Origin: a virus
Taxonomy: Duplodnaviria; Heunggongvirae; Uroviricota; Caudoviricetes
Strand: one strand, 5' to 3'
DNA length: 9,856 nt
IMG/VR virus record: IMGVR_UViG_2698536570_000006
Coordinates: 1 to 9,856 of that record
Both the position numbers and the translations under genes were made by a program. The stretch's first letter is position 1. Every line of letters begins with the position of its first letter. The notes under the pieces were generated by a model. That model saw nothing but the letters and a program-made list of their open reading frames with translations. It was not told where the DNA came from and made no database searches. Positions 6,865-9,856 of the stretch are shown here, one piece after another.

Positions 6865-6897
6865 AAGTCACCGGAGGAGTTCAAACTCCGGTGACTT
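6865..6897. repeat. Perfect 12-bp inverted repeat AAGTCACCGGAG-n9-CTCCGGTGACTT between the HNH gene stop and the ybcN start
   Basis: Seen directly: GC-rich 12-bp arms with a 9-nt spacer, 41 bp downstream of the HNH-protein stop. No adjacent U-tract on either strand, so it is not a canonical intrinsic terminator. Could be an RNA structure, a factor-dependent terminator or a protein-binding palindrome. Confidence 0.6.
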
Positions 6898-6937
6898 AAT
6901 TATGGCAAGTTGATTGTTGAAAATCAATTTAGTGGAT

Positions 6938-7720
6938 TTAGGCGCAATACAAAGGATCATTAGCAGCTCTAATACCGCCCTGAATCGCAAGCCCTGTATG
7001 GCAATTTGACATTGAGCATGATTGCCATCTGTGCAAGGGACCTCCATTAATCGAAACTTCCAGCAGATCTTTATCTCCTTTCATCCTGACCCCTTCATAC
7101 AACATATCAAGACGCTCAACAATCAATCCTGTTGGAGGTTCCATTTTTAGAACGAGGGCAAACTCTCCTGGCCCACGTCGTATTGTTATACGCGGGCCGG
7201 TACACTCCATATCCCAATTGTCTGATTTAGCTTTCCATTCATTTTCATCTATCAGTAAAGTCTCCTTACCAATAGAATTACAGAAAATTCCTGATAAAAG
7301 CATCGGTCCATGTGGTATGGGTGAAGGTTTCACAGAAAGAATGGGTTGTTCGTTGACTACAATCAAATTTTGACAGTTATGAAACGTCACTCCTGCAAAT
7401 TTTACTGTTATAGGCTCATTATGAAAATCAAACATTTCATTTGCAAAACCAGCCTGTAAGCACTTGGGATTTCTGTCAGCTATTTCCACTGTCTGTGCTG
7501 AAAGTCTACCACGAGCTCTTTTTTGATTGCATTGGGAGCAAAGAAGTGTCATTCCATTCGGATCATGTATTTTGGCATCAACGAAGTCAGGTTTAAAATG
7601 CTCATAATCATAAAATCCAAATCCACAAATTACACAGCCAAAGCCGCACCTTTGCCTTATCTGACGTTTTATTGTCTCAGGTATTCTTCTTGAGAGCCCG
7701 TGTTTATTAATATTGTCCAT
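6938..7720 (-). CDS. Uncharacterised 260-aa protein with an N-terminal HNH-type (zinc-finger) nuclease motif and an about 190-aa C-terminal domain of unknown function
   Basis: Residues about 25-68 read CGFGCVICGFGFYDYEHFKPDFVDAKIHDPNGMTLLCSQCNQKRA, fitting the HNH pattern CxxC...(D/E)H...P...N..LLC..C(N/H)..K. I recognise no family for the remainder. AT-rich coding sequence, weak RBS, ATG at 7720. Confidence 0.7.
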   Translation of the reverse strand: MDNINKHGLSRRIPETIKRQIRQRCGFGCVICGFGFYDYEHFKPDFVDAKIHDPNGMTLLCSQCNQKRARGRLSAQTVEIADRNPKCLQAGFANEMFDFHNEPITVKFAGVTFHNCQNLIVVNEQPILSVKPSPIPHGPMLLSGIFCNSIGKETLLIDENEWKAKSDNWDMECTGPRITIRRGPGEFALVLKMEPPTGLIVERLDMLYEGVRMKGDKDLLEVSINGGPLHRWQSCSMSNCHTGLAIQGGIRAANDPLYCA

Positions 7721-7734
7721 ATGGTTAGTACGCT

Positions 7735-7776
7735 ATAAGTTTGTTTCTATAATTTTACCACAATAGATAAGTTTGT
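7735..7776. repeat. Two exact copies of ATAAGTTTGT (7735-7744 and 7767-7776) spaced 32 bp apart, immediately upstream of the HNH gene start
   Basis: Seen directly in the 5' leader or promoter region of the HNH gene. Spacing of about three helical turns suggests a paired operator or iteron, but this is inference. Confidence 0.5.
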
Positions 7777-7850
7777 ATCAGAAATCGCTATATGGAGTGA
7801 GCGGAATATTTATATTATTCATACAATTGCTCTCCCGTACGCAGCCCGCA

Positions 7851-7876
7851 CTTCCGTCATCGCAGAATGACGGAAG
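7851..7876. repeat. Perfect 10-bp inverted repeat CTTCCGTCAT-cgcaga-ATGACGGAAG between the 107-aa ORF and the HNH gene
   Basis: Seen directly; 19 bp downstream of the 107-aa ORF stop (7895) on the minus strand. No U-tract. Candidate transcript-end structure or regulator-binding palindrome. Confidence 0.6.
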
Positions 7877-7894
7877 CCTTACTAACTAGCGCCT

Positions 7895-8218
7895 TTATTG
7901 AAACAGATTCTGAGGTAAATGCGGCAATACTCGACTCCACTTATCATCCTGCCACGGCTGAAGTTTTACATGTGCCGTTTCTCGGGCGAGGATTGCTCGC
8001 GCTCTGTTGAGTATCTGGGGATATTCTTGCTCGATGGAAGTGAAGTGACCAGCCTCACCATGCTCCGCATCCTGAAGAAGATGAGTAACGTTCTGGTAGG
8101 CAATTAACATCACATTCCCTGCTCGCCATAACCAGGCGAGTGTGCAAAGTTCGTTATCAGTGAATTGTTTTGTGATTGGGAATTGTTGAACTGCTAGAAC
8201 GAGAACGCCAGCATCCAT
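7895..8218 (-). CDS. Hypothetical protein, 107 aa, no recognisable family
   Basis: ORF MDAGVLVLAVQQFPITKQFTDNELCTLAWLWRAGNVMLIAYQNVTHLLQDAEHGEAGHF... with GGGA 6 nt upstream of ATG at 8218. Same strand as its neighbours and protein-like composition, but the coding status is unproven; an antisense 62-aa ORF also exists. Confidence 0.4.
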   Translation of the reverse strand: MDAGVLVLAVQQFPITKQFTDNELCTLAWLWRAGNVMLIAYQNVTHLLQDAEHGEAGHFTSIEQEYPQILNRARAILARETAHVKLQPWQDDKWSRVLPHLPQNLFQ

Positions 8219-8329: not shown

Positions 8330-9856
8330 TCAAAAATAAACCTCACCATCAACCATATATTTGAGAGTACTTATCGCCTGCTGGGCGGATATTGTTTTCA
8401 TTAAAGGATAGTGTTTAAAAACAATGCCATTCATAAAATAGATATCACAGGTTTTATTATCTGTATTGATTATGATTTTTTCGAATGTTTTATAGGCAAG
8501 TGTACGACATAGCTCTCGCCCATTTTTACTGGTTAAGTCAATAGCATGAAAATCACCAAGTGAACTCACCGCTTTACTCTTCAAAGTTTTTAATGATACC
8601 GAAGCCCTTCGTAATTCCTTATCTAATACTCTGATTTTTTCTGCTATAGCGGTAACTTCAGGCGCGACAGACAATGCAACGATTAAATTATTAATTTTCA
8701 TCTGAAGCTCAATAATTTTTAACTCTAAAGTTTCATTAGCATCTTTCTTGTTTTCAACTGGTTGAATTTTGCCACAATTAAAAAGCAATTCATTAATGAT
8801 ATTATAATCAACCAAATCTCTTTTTATTGATGGCCTGTCACATCGATGTAATCTTCTCATCGGACAAACATAATAGCCATGCAAACTTCCAGATACCGCA
8901 TGAACAATCATGGTATTACCACAAGCCTCACACTTCATAACTGTTCGAAGTAGATTTATTAGCATAGGATTCTTGCTACTATTGCTAATACCAAAAGGTG
9001 CCAACCGAATTTCCTGTACAGCGTAAAACAAATCATCTGATATGACTCTGGGATAATAGCCAGCGATTTCACTTATCCCTTTCCCTCTTGCACGATATGA
9101 AGGTACGCATATACCTATCAGAGCTTTATTCGCTAATAATTTTTCAATTACAGAAGGCCCCCATGCACTTTCTTTTCCTGAGAAATTCTTTACAGCATGA
9201 TCATTTAAATACTTGGCTATTGCATTCAATGAGCGCCTTTCCATCCTGAGTTTAAAAATTAGCTCAATAGTTTTCACCCTGTCGGGGTCTGGAACAAAGG
9301 CCGTTCTTTTGTCATCTAAGGAGAGCCATCTCGGACAAGACGCCGTCATAATCGTACCTGATTCCAGTGCATCCTGCCGTTTTTTCTTCCATGATAATTT
9401 AACCCGACTTGACTTTATCTCGCTTTCTTCATTTGCCCTTTGTGCTATAAGTATGGCTTTTATTAATGAATATGGCTCATTCAAAGAGTCAATATTATAG
9501 ACTGTATTGTCGCAAAGAGTTATAACATCAATACCGTGATTCAAAATCAATTTCAGACGTTCAATCGCTTCACCGACTTTTTCTCTTGAAAGTCTGTCCA
9601 GACTTTCAACTAACAATGTAGTTCCTGGCAATATATAACCATGCTCTATAGCATCTAAAAATTCCGAAAAAGCTCCTGATTGTGCATGCTTTCCTTTGAA
9701 TGCACTTAATCCTAAATCTTCATATGTTATGGTATCAAGATAATAATCACTATTTACCTTTAACCATTCAGCAATAAGTCTTCTCTGTCGGTTTAATGAG
9801 TCGCCAGACATCTGACCTGGTGATGAAAATCGCATATATGCTATGGCTTTTTTCAT
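8330..9856 (-). CDS. ybcK: Large serine recombinase (YbcK-like): resolvase-type catalytic domain, recombinase domain, Cys-rich zinc-ribbon-like segment and predicted C-terminal coiled coil; 508 aa
   Basis: N-terminal AIAYMRFSSPGQ...SLNRQ...TLLVESLDRLSR fits the serine-recombinase catalytic motifs (YxRVS..Q, SLxRQ, DRLxR). CEACGNTMIV...YYVCPMRRLHRCD is a candidate zinc ribbon; the C-terminal region is Leu/Ile/Lys/Glu-rich. The ATG sits exactly at the window end (9856), so the promoter and anything upstream are not visible. About 35% GC. Confidence 0.85.
   Translation of the reverse strand: MKKAIAYMRFSSPGQMSGDSLNRQRRLIAEWLKVNSDYYLDTITYEDLGLSAFKGKHAQSGAFSEFLDAIEHGYILPGTTLLVESLDRLSREKVGEAIERLKLILNHGIDVITLCDNTVYNIDSLNEPYSLIKAILIAQRANEESEIKSSRVKLSWKKKRQDALESGTIMTASCPRWLSLDDKRTAFVPDPDRVKTIELIFKLRMERRSLNAIAKYLNDHAVKNFSGKESAWGPSVIEKLLANKALIGICVPSYRARGKGISEIAGYYPRVISDDLFYAVQEIRLAPFGISNSSKNPMLINLLRTVMKCEACGNTMIVHAVSGSLHGYYVCPMRRLHRCDRPSIKRDLVDYNIINELLFNCGKIQPVENKKDANETLELKIIELQMKINNLIVALSVAPEVTAIAEKIRVLDKELRRASVSLKTLKSKAVSSLGDFHAIDLTSKNGRELCRTLAYKTFEKIIINTDNKTCDIYFMNGIVFKHYPLMKTISAQQAISTLKYMVDGEVYF

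Follow-up and report, generated by a model that had tools for sequence, protein, structure and literature searches.

The window analysed here, a stretch of 9,856 nucleotides, represents a DLP12-like defective lambdoid prophage of E. coli that is littered with IS elements and whose genes in this region all lie on the minus strand; the whole window is present at 100% identity in E. coli AW1.7. The gene order is emrE, ybcK (encoding a large serine recombinase), a 107-aa ORF (rha'), an ORF for a 260-aa HNH protein, a ylcH-like ORF, ybcN and ninE, followed by ybcO, rusA, ylcG, quuD, a porin gene, lysis genes and bor/iss. A scan for tRNA and tmRNA genes found none. The interval under study, positions 7721–7894 (174 bp), is the exact gap between the 260-aa ORF (6938–7720) and the 107-aa ORF (7895–8218), and a preliminary description had taken it for a structured leader that serves the HNH gene as a dedicated regulatory region. 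The features of the locus are as follows:

6865–6927, minus strand: promoter-like TTGATT-17-CATAAT (6927–6899), then a perfect 12-bp hairpin (6865–6897); right edge of the cargo slot
6938–7720, minus strand: cargo gene for a 260-aa HNH-fold protein with a beta-rich C-terminal domain
7721–7843, minus strand: AT-rich, cargo-specific region upstream of the HNH gene, as delimited by similarity searches
7735–7747, minus strand: direct repeat, copy B, GAAACAAACTTAT, at about +1 to +13 of the predicted transcript
7752–7760, minus strand: predicted extended -10 element TGgTAAAAT, the best promoter candidate on the strand of the gene
7767–7779, minus strand: direct repeat, copy A, GATACAAACTTAT, overlapping the predicted -35 hexamer and the spacer
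7776–7781, minus strand: predicted -35 hexamer CTGATA (4/6 matches, 18-nt spacer)
7844–7894, minus strand: 3' flank of the antirepressor gene, left edge of the cargo slot, about 85% identical to PhiR26_1/PhiR5_1 and to some 177 E. coli genomes
7851–7876, minus strand: perfect 10-bp inverted repeat with a 6-nt loop (12 pairs as RNA), a terminator-like stem-loop lacking a U-tract
7895–8218, minus strand: 107-aa ORF, C-terminal half of a Bro-N/P22AR antirepressor (Rha/Ant-like; Pfam P22_AR_C, 5.8e-14)

In the 5'-to-3' direction of the genes, the stop codon of the 107-aa ORF is followed by 18 nt, the palindrome, about 70 nt, repeat A, 19 nt, repeat B, 14 nt and the ATG of the HNH gene. No credible small ORF was found within the spacer, comparison of the whole window with Rfam at E values up to 1 gave no match inside 7721–7894, and RNA folds of the whole interval were unremarkable on both strands (z about -1). 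Elsewhere in the window, the coding sequence of the ybcK recombinase contains another perfect palindrome, TTGAAAGTCTGTCCAGACTTTCAA, of 10 bp and a 4-nt loop, at 9586–9609.

The cargo slot and its HNH gene

Homology between the window and the DLP12 prophage of strain K-12 breaks at 6927/6928 and 8290/8291, and K-12 carries ybcL-ybcM between these two points. In related phages and prophages, the flanks are either contiguous or differently filled, as is expected of a moron. The slot is occupied by an unknown 169-aa protein (phrog_1779) in L093, L094 and PhiR26_1, by BstA in L095 (PADLOC, 3.6e-121) and by small ORFs in phage Turner, and 26 genomes, L122 among them, hold a deletion remnant. Between the antirepressor gene and ylcH/ybcN, DLP12-like prophages in this way alternate among BstA, the HNH protein and the 169-aa unknown. 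The GC content of the cargo is 0.37–0.42, versus about 0.50 in the backbone.

At the right edge of the slot, where K-12 homology resumes at 6927, the hairpin AAGTCACCGGAG...CTCCGGTGACTT stands just upstream of the ylcH-like ORF. Every cargo class is followed by this conserved element, as is the HNH gene in the unrelated prophages L086 and L088; in L086 the hairpin carries a compensatory change from a C:G to a T:A pair. The hairpin at 6865–6897 lacks a U-tract and is part of the backbone, not of the cargo. In several lambdoid prophages, the HNH gene is followed immediately by 650–1000 bp in which no gene is called (L086 3784–4627; L096 2037–3074; L097 3284–3943; L099 3287–4009; L101 3293–3976).

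The protein encoded by the cargo gene of the window shows a beta-beta-alpha-metal fold with conserved Cys4, His and Asn, as found in HNH endonucleases, and it scores 14.4 bits against the Pfam HNH profile, which is below the curated cutoff of 21.4. No structural match was obtained for its beta-rich C-terminal domain, and searches of PADLOC, NCBIfam and PDB sequences gave no assignment for the protein. The family (phrog_6544, without functional annotation) comprises 305 hits, mostly of about 250–265 aa, spread over Proteobacteria, Cyanobacteria, Chloroflexi and even a Methanothrix MAG; the nearest relative outside this lineage is 78% identical. Relatives at 60–78% identity likewise stand alone in lambdoid prophages, where they sit between the replication genes and the nin/Q genes and have upstream gaps of 88–422 bp. 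Across 61 distant loci no conserved partner gene of the immunity or antitoxin type was found, the HNH gene being always alone. The toxicity that had been put forward as a reason for tight control of this gene was an assumption, to which the missing immunity partner lends no help.

The HNH and 169-aa proteins are candidate anti-phage proteins because they share their slot with BstA, and for the HNH protein a role in defence is plausible on this ground. Sibling DLP12-like prophages carry, in the slot or just upstream of it, BstA, the 169-aa phrog_1779 protein, a PD-lambda-1/DUF4041 protein and a SIR2-family protein (L095 1365–2294; L094 1807–2316 and 3973–5147; L122 2050–3060). With such contents, the slot region resembles a defence hotspot.

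Spacer and HNH gene were found jointly in 81 of 5426 complete E. coli genomes, all copies being at least 98.9% identical with two SNPs only (7814 and 7823), a near-identity that makes selection on the repeats and the hairpin unreadable within the species. Hairpin and repeats co-occur in each of 17 IMG/VR contigs. In strain UPEC-245U, IS1203 occupies the place of the HNH gene, of which no CDS is annotated (L104 56–1269), and in E24377A the 107-aa ORF is cut by IS66 (L103 1938–3174); both genes are dispensable, as these insertions indicate. The 26 genomes represented by L122 (1501–1560) carry a deletion derivative of the cassette, in which a diverged HNH allele (about 92% identity) has shrunk to its last ~55 bp, now fused to a frameshifted antirepressor remnant.

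The hairpin at the left edge of the slot

The 107-aa ORF is 80% identical to residues 100–202 of a 202-aa protein of L094, in which a Bro-N domain (residues 17–100) precedes P22_AR_C, and it has lost Bro-N. This domain is the sole putative DNA-binding domain of the full-length antirepressor. In L093 the antirepressor ORF contains an internal stop. Since the 107-aa product lacks Bro-N and its gene is a pseudogene or IS-truncated in some strains, it is a poor candidate for the binding protein that the preliminary description had suggested it might be; the ORF is a gene remnant and is unlikely to regulate the adjoining HNH gene.

A direct reading of the sequence confirmed the palindrome, CTTCCGTCAT-cgcaga-ATGACGGAAG, with its arms at 7851–7860 and 7867–7876, 18 nt downstream of the stop codon of the 107-aa ORF and about 130 nt upstream of the HNH ATG. 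Among 2000 dinucleotide-preserving shuffles, only 0.15% held a perfect hairpin of at least 10 bp within 174 bp, and in the whole 9.8-kb window three such hairpins were observed where the shuffles predict 0.09 (about 30-fold enrichment). As RNA, the palindrome folds with -26.6 kcal/mol (z -3.1), which is the stable stem expected of an intrinsic terminator. It falls outside the definition of such a terminator, since a U-tract is absent on both strands: the stem is followed by GUGCGGGCUGCG on the minus strand and by CCUUACUAAC on the plus strand, and a terminator scan called the site on neither of them.

The origin of this structure is apparent from the class-B prophages and phages, whose homology with the window (about 85%) begins within the antirepressor gene, passes its stop codon and ends at 7844. 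In L093 and L094, the homologous site is a canonical terminator, with an A-rich run, a stem of TGCCAGCA/TGCTGGCA and a U-run (U8 in L094, U6 in L093); the L094 terminator folds with -20.7 kcal/mol (z -4.2), and a canonical terminator occupies the homologous site of PhiR26_1 as well. The central segment ATGACGGAAG is unchanged between the window and the class-B siblings. In the window, the 5' arm has changed from CTGCCAGCAT to CTTCCGTCAT by three substitutions and as a result pairs with the central segment and not with the distal arm, and the distal arm and U-tract of the class-B terminator are replaced by sequence from the cargo side. The class-B siblings keep a hairpin at the site, but only 7 of 10 arm positions of the palindrome. 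That a hairpin is maintained while the palindromic sequence changes argues for an RNA or DNA structure at the end of a gene, rather than for a conserved site of a dimeric protein. A site for the YbcK recombinase was also considered for the palindrome and rejected, K-12 and other ybcK-bearing prophages lacking it. Altogether, we take the hairpin, which marks the left edge of the slot, to be either a degenerate terminator or a stem-loop of the 3' end.

Predicted promoter and direct repeats upstream of the HNH gene

The remainder of the interval, 7721–7843, gave no significant similarity in local alignments with the upstream regions of other cargos, with K-12 or with HNH relatives. Two resemblances of the segment 7721–7850, one of 33 nt to the tail of K-12 ybcK (p=0.2) and another of 24 nt to the region upstream of BstA (p=0.017), were taken as chance or marginal. 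The 125 nt preceding the HNH ATG have a GC content of 0.34, and the promoter-like hits found in this region (7, versus 4.7 expected from shuffles) are not above expectation in number.

The best candidate, TGgTAAAAT, conforms to the definition of a sigma-70 extended -10 element, with TG one base upstream, A at position 2 and T at position 6, and it would place the start of transcription near 7745–7747. In an ATG-anchored comparison of three HNH lineages, namely that of the window, that of L086 and L087 (78% amino-acid identity) and that of L089 and L006 (74–75%), whose upstream DNA cannot otherwise be aligned, the only conserved upstream block was T..T.TG.TA.A.T.A, 39–40 nt before the ATG; all five members share TGnTAnAnT at -39/-40. 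Conservation of this position in three diverged lineages is the strongest evidence for a promoter of the HNH gene itself, from which we infer promoter activity; the gene is very probably not simply co-transcribed with the upstream ORF. That the upstream ORF is a truncated remnant ending in a stem-loop of its own likewise argues for separate transcription. In the related locus L096, a canonical 13-bp terminator hairpin stands 65–97 nt upstream of the HNH gene, and the order terminator, putative promoter and gene is repeated there.

The -35 hexamer is poor, the leader has no Shine-Dalgarno sequence when inspected directly, and the predicted 5'UTR is about 25 nt long and unstructured. The term "structured leader" is a misnomer for a leader of this kind; the palindrome precedes the predicted promoter, as part of the 3' flank of the adjacent gene. 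The proposal of separate control of the HNH gene holds in that its separate transcription is supported by the conserved extended -10 element, and it does not hold for a single dedicated regulatory region, the interval being made of two parts of different origin.

The direct repeats were also confirmed by reading the sequence: ATAAGTTTGT occurs at 7735–7744 and 7767–7776, and the two copies, 32 bp apart, extend to 13 nt with one mismatch (7735–7747 and 7767–7779), or -27 to -15 and -59 to -47 relative to the HNH ATG. They did not arise as a tandem duplication of 32 bp, an origin rejected because, on direct view of the sequence, the similarity stops at the 13-mer. Exact direct repeats of at least 10 nt within 174 bp occurred in 1.6% of the 2000 dinucleotide-preserving shuffles, and the local p for the 13-nt repeat with one mismatch is about 0.007–0.013. 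Over the whole 9.8-kb window, direct repeats of 10 nt or longer within 50 bp turn up in 27% of shuffles (mean 0.33, against 2 observed), and on account of this look-elsewhere effect the repeat alone is not compelling and is suggestive only for its location. The motif (GATAAGTT) also appears to resemble the high-affinity motif of H-NS, a likeness that serves as a lead only.

The location invites the explanation that the repeats, possibly together with the palindrome, are operators at which a dedicated repressor tightly silences the gene of a toxic HNH nuclease. The copies overlap the core promoter at the predicted -35 and at +1 to +13, the 32 bp between them amount to about three helical turns, a classic repressing geometry that would repress if a protein bound, and the chance probability at this place is only about 0.01. 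However, the repeats are missing from all of the relatives examined, the sites being neither conserved nor co-varying in related loci: between -125 and +70, nine of ten other HNH lineages have no comparable repeat, and the 11-mer repeat of L086 is unrelated. Over 19.7 kb of prophage no further copies exist; none of the genes in the cassette codes for an intact DNA-binding protein, the 107-aa ORF having no Bro-N; a partner gene is conserved in none of the 61 distant loci; 27% of shuffled windows show such a repeat; and the class-B siblings keep the hairpin of the left edge without its palindrome. Tight repression through the repeats, as first proposed, is left without comparative support, and we regard a dedicated repressor as unlikely; that the repeats are a functional operator of any kind is a doubtful, if slightly less doubtful, proposition.

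The opposite explanation, which denies the interval any dedicated function, appears improbable as well. It would have the repeats and the palindrome be incidental to AT-rich DNA and mosaic recombination, and the HNH gene be expressed only by read-through or silent and decaying. The repeat is indeed not significant window-wide, the prophage is defective and IS-littered, an IS interrupts the HNH gene in UPEC-245U, and 26 genomes retain no more of it than its last ~55 bp. Against this, the position of the extended -10 element is conserved across lineages; the genomes listed have an intact, annotated HNH ORF, and 80 genomes hold no less than 80% of a query made of gene plus spacer; perfect hairpins are about 30-fold enriched over shuffles, and the palindrome falls exactly at the position of the terminator.

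The slot shared with BstA raises a further alternative. In BstA-encoding prophages, aba is a 63-bp DNA element at the 5' end of bstA (-29 to +34) whose terminal direct repeats are essential and which confers self-immunity (PMC8585504). In broad form, the HNH protein would be an undescribed single-gene prophage defence, with the lineage-specific 13-nt repeats on either side of its promoter serving it as a cognate element in cis, be it an operator for autoregulation or DNA for self-immunity as in aba; by analogy this is conceivable, but we consider it very unlikely. If true, the element would restrain the HNH nuclease on the replicating DNA of the prophage itself. In strict form, the repeats would be an aba-like element that titrates or switches off the HNH defence protein on the replicating prophage and so confers self-immunity, and this we rate as still less credible. 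BstA fills the identical slot in sibling prophages, its aba is likewise a short DNA element at the 5' end with essential terminal repeats (PMC8585504), and the lineage-specificity of the HNH repeats is what would be expected of cognate elements; yet the HNH protein is unrelated to BstA, with no BstA match in PADLOC, its repeats end 15 nt before the ATG where aba spans the start codon, most HNH lineages have no comparable repeats from -125 to +70, and the defence function of the protein is itself only putative.

On the plus strand, a perfect TATAAT at 7748–7753 lies back-to-back with the predicted -10 element of the HNH gene, and an antisense start from it is possible but unlikely. A small or antisense plus-strand RNA that starts there and ends at the palindrome, some 100 nt downstream, can be set aside as scarcely credible despite the perfect -10 hexamer and the hairpin, given a -35 match of only 3/6, no plus-strand U-tract past the hairpin, a fold z of only -1.9, whole-interval fold z values of about -1 and no Rfam match.

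Altogether, we consider that the interval is probably a composite mosaic joint in the accessory-gene (moron or defence) slot of a DLP12-like lambdoid prophage, and not a single regulatory leader. Under this interpretation, 7844–7894 would be the tail of a truncated antirepressor gene, and its stem-loop a re-paired form, devoid of U-tract, of the intrinsic terminator of the siblings, which might at most weakly insulate the cargo from upstream transcription or stabilise the 3' end of the upstream RNA. The segment 7721–7843 would have arrived with the HNH cargo, bearing a sigma-70 extended -10 promoter with a weak -35 that would transcribe the HNH gene alone. The leader of about 25 nt, unstructured and without Shine-Dalgarno sequence, suggests low constitutive expression in the lysogen. 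A protein bound to the two 13-nt repeats on -35 and +1 would repress this promoter, and these repeats, specific to the lineage, may be incidental. If they have no function, their local improbability (p about 0.01) and their placement on the -35 and +1 positions are left unexplained.

Relation to known systems

The left edge of the slot finds its closest counterpart in the antirepressor terminator of PhiR26_1 and the class-B E. coli prophages. Both structures stand at homologous positions, 18 nt past the stop codon of a Bro-N/P22AR antirepressor gene, with about 85% identity and a shared ATGACGGAAG; in the window, however, the 5' arm pairs with the central segment, and GC-rich sequence from the cargo side replaces the U-tract. 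The predicted promoter resembles sigma-70 promoters of the extended -10 (TGn) type, in that TGgTAAAAT with a weak -35 is usual for promoters dependent on the TG motif; the element of the window is recognised from consensus and positional conservation.

Comparison with the bstA locus of prophage BTP1 and its relatives (PMC8585504) shows the same slot in sibling DLP12-like elements. BstA is reported to be highly expressed in lysogeny in such prophages, and its gene to have its own terminator (PMC8585504). The HNH gene is likewise a single-gene cargo with lysogenic expression of its own, here predicted, and with short repeat-bearing DNA at its 5' end. On the other hand, the HNH-fold protein has no relation to BstA, and the repeats of the window do not reach across the start codon.

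The most general parallel is with phage morons. Morons, in the concept of Juhala and Hendrix, are autonomously transcribed accessory genes at the mosaic joints of lambdoid phages. Like them, the HNH gene is a single cargo between conserved flanks, with a GC content below that of the backbone and a predicted promoter of its own; terminator-like hairpins flank it on both sides, and other cargos fill its slot in siblings. It differs in the loss of the U-tract from the upstream hairpin, in a downstream hairpin that is backbone and not cargo, and in a promoter and termination that are both putative. The find is itself of little weight, as one more case of lambdoid prophages swapping accessory genes between fixed boundaries, each swapped cargo bringing its own promoter. 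The architecture, a mosaic joint in which the remnant of a terminator is followed by a moron promoter, is already known, and the locus described here is a new instance of it.
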